Shown here piece after piece: positions 23,510 to 34,593 of a stretch of DNA of 34,747 bases. Source of the DNA: an uncultured Clostridia bacterium (GTDB lineage Bacteria > Bacillota > Clostridia > Peptostreptococcales > Anaerovoracaceae); assembly GCA_946541285.1 (NCBI GenBank), contig CAMNJG010000001.1, positions 1 to 34,747 on the forward strand. Direction: 5' to 3'. Position 1 is the first letter of the stretch. Each line of letters starts with the position of its first letter. The position numbers and the translations under genes were made by a program. Under the pieces are notes generated by a model. The model searched no databases. It saw only the letters and a list, made by a program, of their open reading frames with translations, and was not told the DNA's origin.

Positions 23510-24140
23510 AATTACACAGCCGTTTTGATAATACAATAAAACAAGTGGCGGGCACCCGTGTTAATCTTCCGGCTTAGGTCCGGTCAGATTTCCTGGAAGG
23601 GCTTCTGAGACGTTGCCGTTTCAGATGTTTCCGTTTAAAGCCTTAACATCACGCGCTGTTGCCATGACGCGCTACCGGATTGCCACTCAGTCCGGACTGC
23701 AATCCACAGGTACCATACAGCCTAGGGGATTTCCCCGGCAGTACTGACTACTCTTATCCTTTTTTGCAACCAGTGTTTCGAGCAGCAATGGCTGACAGGA
23801 ACACGGCCGCTGCTCCTGCGCCTGGACCTGCTGTCCCCACCAGTCACTTCAAGGCAGGCTACGCTCGAACGGGATCCTCTGCTTCACAGCAGCTGTCACC
23901 CCGCTCCAGGTTCATTACTCACAGTCATATGGACATATGAAAGTGAGCCTCCACAGTATCCAGGGTTTACGTCCATATGCCATTATGAATCGCCCCGAAT
24001 ACCTTTTTCTCCCGGTAAATGCCCCCAACTGGGCGTCGGCAGCAAATACGAGGAGCTTCATCGATGTGCCCTTTGACGGATTTTTAGCCCCGTCTTCAGA
24101 ATAATCAGATTCTGACTAGGATACTGCGCCACACAGGTCT
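23510..24140 (-). ncRNA. OLE (ornate, large, extremophilic) RNA candidate; boundaries approximate
   Basis: 639-nt gap with no RBS-preceded ORF and GC-balanced composition. Many stems: 24097-24102/24109-24114, 24075-24079/24090-24094, 23926-23934/23971-23979, 23780-23786/23809-23815, GGGGAAAUCCCC at 23725-23736. Exact xseA-xseB-ispA-[gap]-oapA-dxs-tlyA synteny. Confidence 0.7.
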
Positions 24141-24143
24141 ATC

Positions 24144-25085
24144 TTATGATATTCTGTTCAGCAGGTCAAGCGCCATCTGCTCAAGAAATTCCAGATAACC
24201 GGCGGAATCCTCTGCCGCGTCCGGATTGTTCCTGTTTCCTTTCCGCACCGTTTCCAGGGCGAGACGGGCATTCGCGGTCGCCTGTTCCGCTTTCTCCCTG
24301 GACAGCTCCAGTCCGTACACTGACGGGTAGGTCAGTTTTCCCAGCTGTTCATCCATCCCGGTATTCTTCCCGAGGCTGGCGGCGTCACCTGTCACATCCA
24401 GGATATCATCGACAATCTGAAACGCGATCCCGATCTGTTCCCCGTAAACCGTAAAAGCCTCCAGCATCGCCGGTTCGGCCGCCCCCAGGATCGCTCCGGC
24501 TCTCACGGACGCGCGGAGCAGCGCCCCCGTCTTGTATCTGTGGATATACAGGAGTTTCCGCGCGTCATCTGCCTGGATATGCTCCGGACGGATATCGGCA
24601 GCCTGTCCCGCCGCCATCCCTCTGACACCGGACGCCTCAGAAATCTCACGGGCCGCGCGGATGCAGCGCAGCTGATACGCCGAACCCGGTTCACAGGATT
24701 CCGTCGTCTCCAGCATGACATCCATCGCGGAACTGAACAGCGCGTCACCTGCCAGGATCGCCATATCGTCGCCGAATACTTTATGGTTGGTTGGCCGTCC
24801 CCGGCGGAGGTCATCATTATCCATCGACGGATGATCATCATGGATCAGCGAAAAGGTATGAATGTATTCCATCGCGCAGGCAAACGGCATCGCCTCCCGC
24901 AGTCCGCCTCCGGCGGCCAGGCAGGAAGCCAGTAACAGAACCGGGCGGATCCGTTTGCCTCCCGCTTCAAGACTGTACTTCATGGAATCGTACAGCAGCG
25001 CGCTTTCCGGAGCTGTCACGGGAAGAAACGGGATCAGATGATCTTCGACTTCCTGTTTCAGCTGCTGATATTTTTCACTGAACAT
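24144..25085 (-). CDS. ispA: Farnesyl/geranyl diphosphate synthase
   Basis: FARM LIHDDHPSMDNDDLRRG and SARM QIVDDILD. The ATG at 25085 (MFSEKYQQL) has GGGAGG upstream and overlaps the xseB stop. The track start at 25124 is rejected. Confidence 0.9.
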   Translation of the reverse strand: MFSEKYQQLKQEVEDHLIPFLPVTAPESALLYDSMKYSLEAGGKRIRPVLLLASCLAAGGGLREAMPFACAMEYIHTFSLIHDDHPSMDNDDLRRGRPTNHKVFGDDMAILAGDALFSSAMDVMLETTESCEPGSAYQLRCIRAAREISEASGVRGMAAGQAADIRPEHIQADDARKLLYIHRYKTGALLRASVRAGAILGAAEPAMLEAFTVYGEQIGIAFQIVDDILDVTGDAASLGKNTGMDEQLGKLTYPSVYGLELSREKAEQATANARLALETVRKGNRNNPDAAEDSAGYLEFLEQMALDLLNRIS

Positions 25086-29839: not shown

Positions 29840-30547
29840 TTACCCCCCAAACTCATACAGTGGCTTCAGATGCCCTTTCGCGTCAGCGAAGTACATCTCC
29901 TTCCGGGTGTACAGCCAGTCACTTTCTTCGTAATCCAGGCCACAGAACGCGCAGAATTCCTTCATCAGAATCTGCGGGTTCAGGCTGCCGGTATTTCCCG
30001 CGCCCAGCATCATCGTCAGGATCAGCTTTTTTTCATGAATCAGGCTCATCGAATGAATATTGGGACGGATATCGGTCTCCACATCCTTCCGTTTCTTTTT
30101 GGAATACCTGACGCTCAGGATCGAATCCTGCGCCAGGAAGGCTTCCAGTCTTTCCTGCAAAAGCCGCACAGGATCCTGTTCCCCCCGGTACTCCGCAGTA
30201 TACTCCGCGTAACGGAGCACAGCGGCCGCCGCCGTCTTGCCGGTCTCCTTCAGTTTCCGGCACATCAGTGCTTTCAGGCCAGGCGGCATATGGGCATTGA
30301 GCTGCTCCGCCGCTTCCTGCGGGGTATAATCCACCTCTGTTTCAAACTCCAGATAATCGCCCCGGCTTTCAAAGCCAAGGGACAGGGGCATCGCGAAGCC
30401 GATCTTCGCGTGAGGATTAAACCCGTTGGAATAACTGAGTTTCAGACCGGAACGGCGGAAGGTTCTCTGAAAAACCCTCAGAAGATCCAGATGGGAGATA
30501 AAGCGGATGCCACCCTGTTTTGAAAATTTCAGTAAATATCTGCTCAT
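29840..30547 (-). CDS. Radical-SAM-associated protein of the TIGR03936/DUF2344 type
   Basis: 235 aa. RFISHLDLLRVFQRTFRRSGLKLSYSNGFNPHAKI is characteristic. ATGA overlap with the upstream radical SAM gene. Confidence 0.75.
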   Translation of the reverse strand: MSRYLLKFSKQGGIRFISHLDLLRVFQRTFRRSGLKLSYSNGFNPHAKIGFAMPLSLGFESRGDYLEFETEVDYTPQEAAEQLNAHMPPGLKALMCRKLKETGKTAAAAVLRYAEYTAEYRGEQDPVRLLQERLEAFLAQDSILSVRYSKKKRKDVETDIRPNIHSMSLIHEKKLILTMMLGAGNTGSLNPQILMKEFCAFCGLDYEESDWLYTRKEMYFADAKGHLKPLYEFGG

Positions 30548-32415
30548 GCTTCCACCTGCCTGTAATTCGCGCTCAGTTCATACACCGGACATTCCACAAA
30601 ACGCTTCACACCGCAGCCGGTGCAGCCTTTGCGGCAGTCCTGCGTCTGGATTCCCTGCATGGCCTTTTTCATTTCTTTCAGCATATACTGCTTGCTGACA
30701 CCACAGTCGATGATTTCCCACGGCAGATACTCATCCTCGCCTCTGGCGCGCCGGGAATAGAAATCCGGATCCACTCCGGTATCCTCAAAAGCCTGCAGCC
30801 ATCTGGAATAATCAAAAAACTCCGTCCAGCCATCAAATTTACATCCCAGCTCCCAGGCACGGATCAGTGAAGCGCAGACCTTCCGGTCCCCTCTGGCAAA
30901 AACAGCTTCCAGATAACTGGTTTCCGTACCGTGATACTGATAGGAAACATTTTTCAGCTTTTTCAGCCGGTCCTTGAGATAATAGTGCTTCCGGTTAAAC
31001 TCTTCCGGGGAATCCTGGGCGGCCCACTGGAACGGCGTATCCGCTTTCGGTACAAAATTGGAAACGCTGACAGTGACGTTGAACTTGCCTTTGCGTTCAC
31101 TGACCCGCCGGTAAATGGAGACGATATTCCGGGCGATCTCCGCGATACCGTCCAGATCCTCATCGGTTTCTCCGGGAAGTCCGATCATAAAGTAAAGCTT
31201 GATATTGGTATAGCCCATCCGGATGACCTTTTCAGCAGCCGTATAGATATGCTCATCGGTGATCGATTTGTTGATGATATCCCGCAGGCGCTGGGTCCCG
31301 GCCTCCGGAGCGAAAGTCAGACCGGTTTTCCGGAATTCCTGAATCTCGTGCAGAACCTCTTCCGAAAAAGAATCCAGCCGCAGTGATGGCAGGGACAATC
31401 CTGCTTTCACAGCTTTGCAGTCCGCCATCAGATCCCGCACCAGCGGCTCGATCTGCGAATAATCGCTCGTCGAGAGTGACAGGAGGCTCATCTCATCATA
31501 TCCGGTATTCTGCAGGCTTTCTGAGGCATACTGCCGCACCTGCTCCGGGGAACGCTCCCGGACAGGACGGCAGATCATCCCGGCCTGGCAGAAACGGCAG
31601 CCTCTGGTACAGCCGCGGAACAGTTCGACCACGGTCCGGTTATGTACGGTATCCGTAAACGGAACAACCGGATGCAGCGGGAACGGCACATGGTCCATGT
31701 CCATGACAAAACGCTTCACAATCTGATCCGGCGCAGCTCCGTACAGTTTCTGATGCCCCGTCATCCTGCCCGACTCATCATACTGTGCCTCATAAAAAGA
31801 AGGAACATAAACACCTTCGATACGGGCCAGTTCCTGCAGGAGCTGTGGCCTGCTCCAATTCTCTTTTTTGGACCGGCGGATGAGATCCGTGACCTGTACC
31901 AGCACTTCCTCTCCGTCTCCGGGCATAAAGAAATCAAAAATATCCGCCAGCGGTTCCGGATTAAAGGAACAGTTTCCTCCTCCCGCAATAATCGGATGCT
32001 CCTCTGAGCGATCCCTGCTGTAAAAAGGGATACCGGCCAGATCCAGCATATTGACGATATTCGTAAACGAAAGCTCGTACTGGAGGGTAAATCCCAGGAT
32101 GTCCATCTCCGCCGCAGGCTGCTTGTCCTCCAGAGTAAACAGTGGAACGCCTTCTTCTCTCATCAGCGTTTCCATATCGGCTCCGGGAGCAAACAGTCTC
32201 TGGCAATAGACTCCTTTCTGGCTGTTCAGAACATGATAAATGATCTGGAGTCCAAGATAGGACATCCCGATTTCGTACAGATCCGGGAAACAGAATCCCC
32301 AGAAAACCTCTGTTTCATCCGGAGCCTTATGGACTTCATAAAGCTCGCCCCCCATATAGGAGGCAGGTTTATTCACTTTGGTCAGCAGTTTTTCAATCCT
32401 GTCAAAAAGATTCAT
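30544..32415 (-). CDS. B12-binding-domain radical SAM protein of the TIGR03960 type
   Basis: 623 aa. CxxxCxxC cluster motif RGCTRGCRFCQAG. N-terminal Rossmann-like B12-binding-type domain. Confidence 0.8.
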   Translation of the reverse strand: MNLFDRIEKLLTKVNKPASYMGGELYEVHKAPDETEVFWGFCFPDLYEIGMSYLGLQIIYHVLNSQKGVYCQRLFAPGADMETLMREEGVPLFTLEDKQPAAEMDILGFTLQYELSFTNIVNMLDLAGIPFYSRDRSEEHPIIAGGGNCSFNPEPLADIFDFFMPGDGEEVLVQVTDLIRRSKKENWSRPQLLQELARIEGVYVPSFYEAQYDESGRMTGHQKLYGAAPDQIVKRFVMDMDHVPFPLHPVVPFTDTVHNRTVVELFRGCTRGCRFCQAGMICRPVRERSPEQVRQYASESLQNTGYDEMSLLSLSTSDYSQIEPLVRDLMADCKAVKAGLSLPSLRLDSFSEEVLHEIQEFRKTGLTFAPEAGTQRLRDIINKSITDEHIYTAAEKVIRMGYTNIKLYFMIGLPGETDEDLDGIAEIARNIVSIYRRVSERKGKFNVTVSVSNFVPKADTPFQWAAQDSPEEFNRKHYYLKDRLKKLKNVSYQYHGTETSYLEAVFARGDRKVCASLIRAWELGCKFDGWTEFFDYSRWLQAFEDTGVDPDFYSRRARGEDEYLPWEIIDCGVSKQYMLKEMKKAMQGIQTQDCRKGCTGCGVKRFVECPVYELSANYRQVEA

Positions 32416-32511
32416 AGTCTTCCATTATTTCCTTCCCTTACAGCAATCTTCTGAAAATTCCCTCTCCGTAAACCTGGCCCGGTTACTGTTTGGTGTTCAA
32501 ACATAATTAGT

Positions 32512-32551
32512 GTCTGCTCATTAAGTCCCCGTCGGACTTAATGATGCAGGC
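32512..32551. repeat. 40-bp palindromic element, copy A
   Basis: GTCTGC-T-CATTAAGTCC-CCGTC-GGACTTAATG-AT-GCAGGC. Equals the reverse complement of 34538-34577 at 39/40; the only mismatch is at 32533 in the central loop. Confidence 0.9.
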
Positions 32552-32578
32552 AGCTAAACTGATATTTTAATGTTTTTC

Positions 32579-32604
32579 GGTTAATGAGCACGCATTAATT
32601 ATAT
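32579..32604 (-). promoter_or_regulatory. Half-copy of the palindromic element fused to a TATAAT box, upstream of the radical SAM operon
   Basis: Minus strand TATAAT-TAATGCGTGCTCATTAACC parallels TATAAT-AAATAATGTCTGCTCATTAAGTCC at 34590-34552. TTAATGAG (32581-32588) is complementary to CTCATTAA (32517-32524) within copy A. Confidence 0.45.
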
Positions 32605-32610
32605 AAAAAA

Positions 32611-34395
32611 TCACGATAATCCCGGTTCCGGGATCTCCAGGTCGTATCGGTCCGCGTATTCTTTTGTGAGATCAAACAGCTCATAGCCTCCCCGGTTGAT
32701 CTTCAGCTTCAGCACATCCGGCAGCTGACGGCCGGTCAGTTCGCATTTCAGTACCCGCAGTACTCCGGAATGCGCGACAATCACTATATCTCCCGGTTCC
32801 TGCTGCACGATTTCGTTAAATTTCGCGACGACCCGTTCTCTCAGATCATAAAAATTCTCAGACTCCGCATCGATCCGGTAACTGAGAAGATGTTCGCCCC
32901 GTGCTTCATACTGCTCCGGATATTTCTCCCGTATCTCCCGGATCGGCCTGCCGTCCCAGCCTCCCAGGTTCATTTCCCGGAATTCCGGTACTTTCTGAAT
33001 CGTCAGATCCAGCCCGGTTCCCGGAATCATCATTTCCGCGCTCTGGACAGCCCGCTTCAGATCACTGCAGTAAAGTGTGGAAGTATGGATGTCAAAATGG
33101 GTCAGCTCAATCCCCGCAATCCGGCACTGTTCACGCCCTTCATCATTGAGAGGTACATCGGTCTGCCCGAGAAAAATCTTTTCCCGGTGTTTTTCCGTTT
33201 CCCCATGCCGGATGAGGAAAACCCGTCTGAGGGGTACTTCCGCGGCCTGACGCGCTTTTTCATCATGCTCCAGAAGGAACTTGTACAGGCTTTTTTCGAT
33301 TTTCAGATTGATATAGTTCAGTACCGCATAGGTGCATCCGATTTTTGATTCAATCGCCTGTACCGCTTCCAGGTCATCCTTGAAACGCAGGAGTACAGGA
33401 GCCAGTCTCTGCTCCAGGGTCACCAGCTTGTCTTCCTGACGGAATTTGTCCGCCAGGCAGATAATATCCTTTTCCGTAATATCATATACCGGCAGTGGAT
33501 GCTGATAATCCATATGATCCTTAATGATATCCGCGACTTCCGGATACCCGTAGTCCAGCATCAGCCTGGCGCCTTCTTCTGCGTGGTCCGGTTTCATGCG
33601 CAATACATCATGCAGGGATCCAGAGGCCCGGATCAGCGGAATCGACAGAAACATCCCGTGCCGGTTCAGTTCTTCCGCAATCAGCAGCGCTGTCTCTGTC
33701 ACAGCCATACAATGCTTAATGATATGGGAAGGGGTGCCCTCCCGGTCAAGGATCCTGCGGCACTGTTCCTCATTCGGATATTTGTGGGTTCTGTAAAACT
33801 CAAGCAGTGCTTTATAGGCTTCCTGTGTATCCATATCGTACAGGATGCTCTCACAGTGCGTATCGACACGGATCATGCTGTGTTCATGCGGGGCCGTGAC
33901 GGATTTCATGCCGTTTTCCCCGTCGGAACGCAGAACTTCCTCTACCAGCCCGCCCGGTACCAGAAGCGGATGCGCTTTTTTGCCACCGCAACAGGCCACC
34001 ACAAATTCGCTGCGGTCGGAATCATAATACCGGTTCATCAGGGCTTTGAAAATATATGGCGGGATCAGTGGAACGTCCACCGGTGTCATGAGAATACAGT
34101 CATGACCATCCTGTTTCGCGGCCTCCAGCCCCTTTTTCACAGAGGTAAACATCCCGTCCGCGAAGTGCTCATTATAAACGATCCGGACAGTTTCATCCTT
34201 CAGGTACTCTTCGATCTGCCCGGACTGGTATCCGGTCACAACATAGATATCCCGGATCCCGGCGATTCTGAAGTTTTCAACAAGAATTCCCAGTGGACAA
34301 CTGTTGCCGATCCTCATAAGTGGCTTAAAGTCATGCATTCTCGACGAATATCCCGCCGAGAGAATCAGACCTGCCGGATTTCTGTCTTTCATCAT
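32611..34395 (-). CDS. Three-domain fusion: MobA/CobY-like NTP transferase + HD phosphohydrolase + histidine phosphatase (CobC/PGM family)
   Basis: GLILSAGYSSRM nucleotidyltransferase G-loop. HD region HCMAV...SLHDVLR. FLIRHGETE and VIVAHSGVLR histidine-phosphatase motifs. The ATG at 34395 has AAGGAG 9 nt upstream; 34416 is an alternative. The track start at 34557 lies inside the palindromic leader. Confidence 0.75.
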   Translation of the reverse strand: MMKDRNPAGLILSAGYSSRMHDFKPLMRIGNSCPLGILVENFRIAGIRDIYVVTGYQSGQIEEYLKDETVRIVYNEHFADGMFTSVKKGLEAAKQDGHDCILMTPVDVPLIPPYIFKALMNRYYDSDRSEFVVACCGGKKAHPLLVPGGLVEEVLRSDGENGMKSVTAPHEHSMIRVDTHCESILYDMDTQEAYKALLEFYRTHKYPNEEQCRRILDREGTPSHIIKHCMAVTETALLIAEELNRHGMFLSIPLIRASGSLHDVLRMKPDHAEEGARLMLDYGYPEVADIIKDHMDYQHPLPVYDITEKDIICLADKFRQEDKLVTLEQRLAPVLLRFKDDLEAVQAIESKIGCTYAVLNYINLKIEKSLYKFLLEHDEKARQAAEVPLRRVFLIRHGETEKHREKIFLGQTDVPLNDEGREQCRIAGIELTHFDIHTSTLYCSDLKRAVQSAEMMIPGTGLDLTIQKVPEFREMNLGGWDGRPIREIREKYPEQYEARGEHLLSYRIDAESENFYDLRERVVAKFNEIVQQEPGDIVIVAHSGVLRVLKCELTGRQLPDVLKLKINRGGYELFDLTKEYADRYDLEIPEPGLS

Positions 34396-34468
34396 CGTGG
34401 ACATCTCCTTAGTCATTCCAGGTTCCTTACAGGATTCACTTTTATATGGAAAATCCCTGCCGGGCATC

Positions 34469-34584
34469 AAATAATGTCTGCCCGCATGGTTTCTTTTCAT
34501 TGAAAAACCATGCGGAATGCAGGCATATACTTCGACAGCCTGCATCATTAAGTCCAACGGGGACTTAATGAGCAGACATTATTT
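34469..34584. repeat. 116-bp nested palindrome containing element copy B (34538-34577)
   Basis: 13-bp outer stem AAATAATGTCTGC/GCAGACATTATTT (34469-34481/34572-34584). It encloses hairpin CCGCATGGTTT/AAACCATGCGG (34482-34492/34505-34515), ATGCAGGC/GCCTGCAT (34517-34524/34538-34545) and CATTAAGTCC/GGACTTAATG (34546-34555/34561-34570). Confidence 0.85.
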
Positions 34585-34593
34585 ATTATAGCA
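34585..34593 (-). promoter_or_regulatory. Extended -10 promoter element TGCTATAAT for the three-domain gene
   Basis: The reverse complement of 34585-34593 is TGCTATAAT, immediately abutting the nested palindrome. Predicted TSS is near 34578. Confidence 0.5.

Follow-up and report, generated by a model that had tools for sequence, protein, structure and literature searches.

Two palindromes on either side of a three-domain gene

The window analysed here is a stretch of 34,747 nt, contig CAMNJG010000001.1 from an uncultured Clostridia bacterium of the Anaerovoracaceae (assembly GCA_946541285.1). Near its right end a single gene is bracketed by two inverted, near-identical palindromes, the subject of this study. 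We consider it likely that both palindromes are the same hairpin, termed P2, of two independent and decayed insertions (copy A and copy B) of a non-coding repeat family resembling MITEs (transposable elements of the miniature inverted-repeat type), which is dispersed in Anaerovoracaceae-type Clostridia of rumen and gut. The gene between the palindromes encodes a fusion of a MobA-like nucleotidyltransferase with an HD domain and a histidine phosphatase, and the relatives of its product carry the NCBI name 'DVU_1551 family NTP transferase'. In all relatives examined the genes directly downstream of it are one for a B12-type radical SAM protein and one with DUF2344, and the spacers of 3–119 nt in these relatives suggest an operon.

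A first-pass annotation had reported that positions 32512–32551 equal the reverse complement of 34538–34577 at 39 of 40 positions, and this match was confirmed both by reading the sequence and with a repeat finder. The repeat finder gave inverted arms of 49 nt (32503–32551 / 34538–34586) that are 94% complementary, and the sole mismatch of the 40-nt core falls in the 5-nt loop (CCGTC vs. CCGTT in the orientation of the element). With 3 mismatches allowed, CATTAAGTCC-N5-GGACTTAATG was found at exactly two sites in the window, and 100 shuffles gave 0 matches. Equally real are the flank with ATAAT, which both copies have on the same side, the single gene between them and the TGCTATAAT box just outside copy B. 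The GYCTGC/GCAGRC arms described around the palindrome are also present, but they are not mutual partners: GTCTGC pairs with GCAGAC ~90 nt downstream in a stem termed P1, and TGCAGGC pairs with GCCTGCA in a stem termed P3. Coordinates of all features are collected in Table 1.

Table 1. Features at the locus, in window coordinates; bit scores and E values are those of the covariance model R1 described below
Feature	Position	Strand	Remark
B12-type radical SAM gene	29840–32415	−	
Copy A, left 6-bp flanking direct repeat TAATTA	32504–32509	+	identical to 32596–32601
Copy A, internally deleted element keeping both termini	32510–32595	+	R1 51.4 bits, E 1e-13
Copy A, 5′ terminus GTGTCTGCT	32510–32518	+	
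Copy A, P2	32519–32543	+	
Copy A, remnant of P3 5′ strand, ATGCAGGCAG	32544–32553	+	
Copy A, remnant of module-2 hairpin P4′ (loop and 3′ strand)	32554–32585	+	
Copy A, 3′ terminus GAGCACGCAT	32586–32595	+	
Copy A, right 6-bp flanking direct repeat TAATTA	32596–32601	+	
Bracketed host gene, NTP_transf_3 + HD + His_Phos_1, 594 aa	32611–34395	−	not part of the element
Copy B, complete module 1, 121-nt four-way junction	34586→34466	−	R1 127.9 bits, E 2e-37, full length
Copy B, conserved linker TTGAT	34470–34466	−	
Copy B, P1 3′ strand	34481–34469	−	
Copy B, P4	34515–34482	−	
Copy B, P3	34545–34517	−	
Copy B, P2 (palindrome)	34570–34546	−	loop 34560–34556
Copy B, P1 5′ strand	34584–34572	−	
TAAATA between −10 box and copy B	34585–34580	−	flanking repeat at the other element end in allele L031
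Host −10 box with TG extension, TGCTATAAT	34593→34585	−	directly upstream of copy B, outside the element

Copy B extends ~80 nt beyond the palindrome and folds into a four-way junction (ΔG −62.3 kcal/mol, z-score −10.4) with at most 1 unpaired base between stems. Besides P2, its stems are formed by AAAUAAUGUCUGC / GCAGACAUUAUUU (P1), AUGCAGGC / GCCUGCAU (P3) and CCGCAUGGUUUUU / AGAAACCAUGCGG (P4). Either strand of copy B folds equally well, and the same architecture was found in 30 other copies. The adjoining TGCTATAAT is a putative promoter, judged by the consensus and by a conserved TG-extended −10 box in relatives; a simple promoter scan did not list it, and its −35 is presumably weak.

Copy A lies in the opposite orientation, antisense to both genes that flank it, and its termini match those of full-length elements. 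The end of copy A, TTAATGAGCACGCAT, is an inverted repeat of its start, and of P3 only a stub is left after P2; in the output of the repeat finder the same relation appears as pair I2, whose second arm (32581–32602) matches the start of copy A and represents the other element terminus. The right flank of copy A together with the next bases reads TATAAT on the minus strand, facing the element and the radical SAM gene, and on the strength of this motif it might be a candidate promoter. A less deleted allele of the same insertion is present in four of the loci fetched from other assemblies (numbered with L; here L026, L027, L033 and L076). Two deletion states of copy A occur within one sheep-rumen project, and their endpoints lie at short repeated motifs (TGCAG; window 32554–32585 vs. 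L026/L076), which suggests a decay by slippage or microhomology.

Architecture, conservation and dispersal of the repeat family

Full-length elements measure 258–262 nt in every subfamily. They run from a 5′ terminus, (G/A)TGTCTGCTCA (also given as (G/A)TGTCTGCT), through module 1, the linker TAATTGATGC and module 2 to a 3′ terminus, TGAGCACGCAT (also given as GAGCACGCAT). Module 1 is the four-way junction of stems P1–P4, and TGTGCTCWG/CWGAGCACG closes a further four-way junction, module 2; the two are consecutive and almost fully paired, with ~80% of bases in pairs. Module 1 alone contains a perfect 13-nt inverted pair (P1), and module 2 a pair of ~20 nt. The terminal inverted repeats (TIRs) are imperfect: in the window-type subfamily the 5′ end, (G)TGTCTGCTCATTAA, agrees with the reverse complement of the 3′ end, ATGCGTGCTCATTAA, at 12/15 positions, and in L059 the agreement is 13/15. 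No second P2-like hairpin was found at the right end of the element.

The size of individual copies ranges from 52 to 358 nt, with short forms of 52, 91–110 and 165 nt, long forms of ~355 nt, and tandem arrays. The head-to-tail array at L003 (6131–6761), for instance, holds 2 full units (period 263 nt) and, after them, a truncated unit of 99 nt. The ~355-nt subfamily (L046 978–1340, L067 1509–1863, and L063) carries an insert of ~97 nt inside the first hairpin of module 2, perhaps another small element nested there. The element is non-coding, as its stems covary and show no codon-like conservation.

The same four-way junction was recovered in 31 of 31 non-redundant copies of module 1, with P3 and P4 sharing no sequence between subfamilies. 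A plain MAFFT alignment with RNAalifold recovered only P2, with P3 and P4 out of register between subfamilies, and was replaced by per-sequence folds, by a hand-given structure on a register-consistent subset of 15 copies (A2), and by covariance-model alignment. In A2 the stated structure pairs 96.4% of cells vs. 33–39% in slid controls; 10 pairs are changed on both sides, and the covariation score is 0.173 vs. 0.069 for shuffles. The covariance model R1 was built from this subset. Among 37 distinct complete copies, 93.9% of cells pair, and compensatory changes amount to 5/13 in P1, 7/8 in P3 and 6/12 in P4. The invariance of P2 is in part a matter of ascertainment, the loci having been chosen by exact P2, and a decayed copy with a mutated P2 exists; the identity of P2 in subfamilies in which the other stems are fully diverged nevertheless shows that its sequence is truly constrained. 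No clear strand specificity is seen in the structure, with module 1 containing nearly as many G.U as A.C cells (30 and 36).

The family loci were fetched by the exact P2 sequence in a scan of representative genomes and a scan of metagenomes, a search that the first-pass annotation had proposed. It revealed a dispersed repeat. Among representative genomes, Hornefia butyriciproducens contains 16 copies at 14 unrelated loci on 9 contigs, as well as at least one decayed copy, and another Bacillota metagenome-assembled genome (MAG) contains one. A further 45 loci were found in metagenomes, apparently rumen and gut assemblies, some of them from the sheep-rumen project that also yielded contigs identical to the window. 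The window and Hornefia share ~70% nucleotide identity in coding regions, which identifies the source of the window as a different, uncultured relative. In ~18 of the 45 metagenome loci (L035–L079) the element lies within ~150 nt of a contig end, and two contigs of 2.0 kb, L034 and L058, contain no gene but the three-domain gene and terminate within copy A and copy B. Repeats that break short-read assemblies usually leave this pattern, and it indicates that the element is multicopy also in the species of the window.

R1 found only copy A and copy B in the window, and only family members across all loci. Palindrome matches in Gilliamella, Leptospira, Bacteroidales and others were rejected as unrelated hairpins, being without the flanks and without an R1 match. 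No Rfam family matched the element, either at the gathering score on the window or in permissive scans (E up to 1–10) of the locus and four related loci. Searches of plasmids gave no match of element length (one chance 39-nt match), searches of phages and viral contigs gave none, and nothing relevant was found in the literature on the element sequence or on Hornefia repeats. The repeat family is new and previously undescribed, and the kind of object is an ordinary one, a small structured mobile repeat.

The neighbours of the other copies are functionally unrelated and include transporters, peptidases, regulators, glutamate dehydrogenase and housekeeping genes. Three kinds of position were observed: sense copies placed after a −10-like box and ahead of a start codon, copies with the 5′ end 24–120 nt from the start of a divergent gene, and copies just behind stop codons or between convergent genes. 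Co-directional contexts comprise 7 sense and 3 antisense copies, as counted from gene calls that are crude open reading frame (ORF) picks and in part wrong (e.g. at L003). TATAAT spans the 5′ junction at ~1/3 of sites, which fits insertion at TAAT-rich, −10-like sequences.

These distributions bear directly on two other explanations. The first-pass annotation had raised the possibility of an operator for a dimeric DNA-binding regulator common to two transcription units, and a perfect inverted repeat of 10–11 bp with a 5-nt spacer, which in copy B directly follows a −10 box, has the look of such a site. Yet in every family copy fetched the palindrome stands at the 5′ end of a larger conserved element or of its truncated remnant. 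It occurs in both orientations, after stop codons and in convergent intergenic regions, next to unrelated genes, and upstream of copy A no promoter of the same orientation is evident. A shared operator is thus extremely unlikely.

The second is a functional cis-acting RNA domain, namely an mRNA stabiliser, a site for a host RNA-binding protein that reads P2, or a substrate of double-strand RNase processing as in the Correia elements, its dispersal being secondary. It would account for the very stable fold (z-score about −10), for stems that covary between subfamilies, for a P2 sequence kept across genera while P3 and P4 have diverged, for a weak sense-strand G.U excess in full-length copies, and for the many sense copies between a −10 box and a start codon (L002, L003, L006, L007, L014, L019, L035 and copy B). 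It would not account for the mixed orientations just described, for the antisense position of copy A, or for the several copies in convergent or 3′ positions. Moreover, the junction contains almost no unpaired conserved nucleotides, G.U does not exceed A.C in module 1, and neither strand folds better than the other. A strain free of the element has promoter and gene intact, and the element was never found at the orthologous genes examined. The lack of a common function among the downstream genes and of an Rfam match also speaks against a riboswitch. A primary RNA function is, in our judgement, improbable, and the 5′/3′ RNA stem-loops proposed by the first-pass annotation stand only as a consequence of insertion: copy B would form the 5′ end of an mRNA and copy A would lie antisense between two cistrons.

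Alleles, orthologous loci and flanking repeats

Contigs whose radical SAM protein is 100% identical to that of the window revealed three alleles at the site of copy B: an empty site in L029, module 1 only in the window and L034, and an element ending with module 2 in L031 and L058. The flanks of the empty site in L029 are 98–99% identical to the window. This empty site reads TATAAT-ATATATTATTTTGTTTTGATA-CCCGG, and the right junction in L031 and L058 reads ...GAGCACACAT-TAAATA-TTAATTTG. When the left junction of the window and the right junction of L031 are joined, minus the element and one TAAATA, 26 nt are colinear with the empty allele, gapless and identical at 23/26 positions; the comparison is with one empty site. 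An origin of copy B as a module-1-only insertion was considered and dropped. The L031/L058 allele and the TTGATGC/TTGATAC microhomology favour, without proving it, a longer insertion that lost module 2.

Polymorphism was observed at other sites as well. The site of copy A has two alleles with different internal deletions, and upstream of an aspartate-racemase-like gene the metagenome strain L037 (5846–5950) has only a truncated unit where the Hornefia reference (L003) has two full units and a truncated one. Family-wide, the 6-nt flanks on the 5′ and 3′ sides are equal at 119/126 positions, vs. 99.8 ± 2.7 with permuted 3′ flanks (0/20000 as high). The flanking repeat has the consensus TAATTA, and rare variants (TAATAA, TAATATA, TAATTC, TAAGCA and TAAATA) are matched within copies. 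The host gene at L008 has a stop codon that overlaps the left repeat, which identifies this repeat as target DNA.

At orthologous loci of relatives, in which the three-domain protein is 58–86% identical, the gene order DUF1266/Imm33 – three-domain gene – radical SAM – DUF2344 – AlaX-like is kept, and R1 found no element anywhere. The spacer downstream of the three-domain gene measures 195 nt in the window vs. 3–119 nt in the relatives. As the relatives keep this gene order without the element, the bracketing of one gene is coincidental. Their promoters at the corresponding place, likewise without the element, read TGATATAAT (L080, L029) or TGCTATAAT (L081); the −10 box is thus the host's own, and the element was inserted just downstream of it.

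The same comparisons bear on the inversion of the 2-kb segment that the first-pass annotation had considered, in which the two copies would act as a switch and flip the gene relative to the TGCTATAAT promoter. The gene does lie between 49-nt inverted repeats, 94% identical, with the promoter close outside one repeat, but only the orientation of the window was seen. Four contigs from different samples (L029–L032) span the copy-A junction, and L029 alone, with its empty allele, spans the site of copy B. Neither the ~8 kb downstream nor the orthologous upstream gene revealed a recombinase, in relatives the gene order is unchanged and repeats are absent, the L029 strain has only one of the two copies, and the family sits at dozens of unrelated single sites. 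An invertible segment is therefore very unlikely. A rare RecA-mediated inversion between the two 49-bp repeats is possible, the evidence here being short-read assemblies.

Interpretation and comparison with known repeats

From these observations we infer a transposition mechanism, an enzyme and possible effects on expression. Insertions of the family would be made by a trans-acting transposase, either by cut-and-paste or by copy-in, with a 6-bp staggered cut at TAAT-rich sites. Such target sites resemble −10 boxes, so that copies would often come to lie in promoter and 5′ untranslated regions (UTRs). Copy B would derive from an insertion immediately behind the −10 box of the three-domain gene, with module 2 lost afterwards. 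Copy A would be an insertion of opposite orientation in the spacer between the three-domain gene and the radical SAM gene, followed by two internal deletions, and the inverted arrangement of the two copies around one gene would be a coincidence. As side effects, a very stable four-way junction would stand at the 5′ start of the three-domain mRNA, a strong hairpin would lie in the intercistronic spacer downstream, and the 49-bp inverted repeats would offer a substrate for rare homologous inversion. The model predicts that transcription begins, downstream of host −10 boxes, with the G of GTGTCTGC and runs through the element.

Several observations weigh against this explanation. No autonomous element or transposase with matching ends was found, and in the Hornefia reference and the Bacillota MAG a reading of the translated ORFs next to the copies showed no obvious transposase or recombinase, no family search having been run. 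A scan for orphan termini returned the expected termini and one false positive inside a coding region. Most Hornefia insertions are the same in the reference genome and in metagenome strains, which indicates that movement is not frequent. The flanking repeat is unusually uniform, being TAATTA in most copies, and the 6 nt of the 5′ flank are complementary to the 6 nt that follow module 1 (155/186 vs. 150.1 ± 2.3 permuted, p = 0.03); a uniform flank with internal complementarity is not predicted by plain target duplication. In full-length copies the sense strand has more G.U pairs (105 vs. 58) and is on average 3.6 kcal/mol more stable. Finally, a P2 that is 100% conserved between subfamilies of unlike P3 and P4, together with the strong covariation, could mean a host function.

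The complementarity of flank and internal segment, seen in the window between 34580–34585 and 34469–34474, has matched variants in copy B, L047, L046 and L077. It could point to a guided non-autonomous mobile unit, in which the 6 nt after module 1 would act as an internal 'guide' that pairs with a TAAT-rich, −10-like target, and an enzyme would read P2 on folded single-stranded DNA or RNA. Were this true, the element would be promoter-seeking and nucleic-acid-guided, and would install four-way-junction leaders on host mRNAs; we regard this as quite doubtful. Much the same small chance is given to a related proposal, that the repeat is of the repetitive extragenic palindromic (REP) type or of its mosaic form (bacterial interspersed mosaic element, BIME) and is moved by a single-strand HUH enzyme, be it a REP-associated tyrosine transposase (RAYT) or another one, which reads P2, or else is integrated by nucleic-acid guidance through the segment after module 1. 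The hairpin and a TAG a few nt before it, both conserved, a dispersed, extragenic and mosaic family, and a structure that is not strand-specific would all be expected of it, and so would the matched variants. However, the unit is far larger than a REP, and no stand-alone palindrome of 20–40 nt was seen in any family copy fetched. Transposition by HUH/Y1 enzymes, as in IS200/IS605 and by RAYTs, is not known to yield TIRs or 6-bp direct repeats, and both are present here; the right end lacks a second P2-like hairpin. No RAYT was seen, no genome search for RAYTs having been made. The complementarity itself is marginal and is confounded by the palindromic consensus TAATTA.

Among the suggestions of the first-pass annotation, a REP-like extragenic palindrome came closest. 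The dispersed repeat was borne out, but the unit is one of 110–260 nt with TIRs and 6-bp direct repeats and not a 40-bp REP. The element resembles REP and BIME sequences in being dispersed, extragenic and mosaic, with a conserved palindromic hairpin, and differs from them in its size (110–260 nt vs. 20–40 nt), its flanking direct repeats and its TIRs.

The insertion of a MITE-like repeat remains the reading that we prefer. As MITEs are defined in bacteria (PMC3049150, PMC3184786), the element agrees with them in being small (under ~500 bp), non-coding and tightly base-paired, with TIRs and short flanking direct repeats. It is also multicopy and intergenic, varies in presence between strains and has internally deleted derivatives. 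In contrast to MITEs, its body consists of two consecutive, near-perfect four-way junctions instead of one long hairpin. Its flanking repeat is near-constant (TAATTA) and complementary to an internal segment, its P2 is invariant in sequence across subfamilies while the other stems only covary, and no parent insertion sequence is known for it.

The BOX elements of Streptococcus pneumoniae have the composition boxA-boxB(n)-boxC (PMC3049150). Like these, the element is a modular composite whose modules can be absent or repeated and whose length differs between strains at one locus; stable stem-loops are predicted if it is transcribed, and it lies near gene starts, where it may be co-transcribed as untranslated RNA. 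It differs in that its modules are self-contained four-way junctions, that whole units and not an internal module are found in tandem, and that its hosts are Anaerovoracaceae-type Clostridia. For BOX elements and for the Correia elements of Neisseria alike, the likeness is functional and architectural only and is drawn from descriptions. Correia repeat enclosed elements (CREE) are associated with a TA duplication. They measure 100–155 bp and have 26-bp inverted repeats, an IHF site and RNase III processing (PMC2649163). The element shares with CREE a short inverted-repeat form, the ability of one end or of both, taken together with the flank, to read as a −10 box, a frequent position between promoter and gene, and polymorphism between strains. 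Unlike the situation in CREE, the −10 box at copy B pre-exists in relatives without the element and was not made by the insertion.

As to a possible mobiliser, most members of the IS481 family make 6-bp duplications and related elements start with TGT (PMC10045372), and the element has 6-bp flanking direct repeats and termini that read (G)TGT.... Its inverted repeats differ in being short and imperfect (12/15), and an IS481-type transposase is a candidate to be treated as a lead only.

Short-read assemblies of these Clostridia from rumen and gut are broken at many promoters, and the family accounts for this; its copies should not be mistaken for operators, inversion sites or riboswitches. By landing at promoter-like, TAAT-rich sites, such a small structured repeat can rewire 5′ UTRs and operon spacers, and it varies among co-existing strains. 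If the invariant hairpin and the complementarity of flank and internal segment reflect the choice of target, they may be a pointer to an uncharacterised mobilising enzyme, an idea that is testable in H. butyriciproducens as a cultured host.

Elsewhere in the window, and unrelated to the repeat, the Rfam scan identified a full-length ornate large extremophilic (OLE) RNA on the minus strand (23529–24148; RF01071, 394 bits, E 1.5e-112, model positions 1–616/616).

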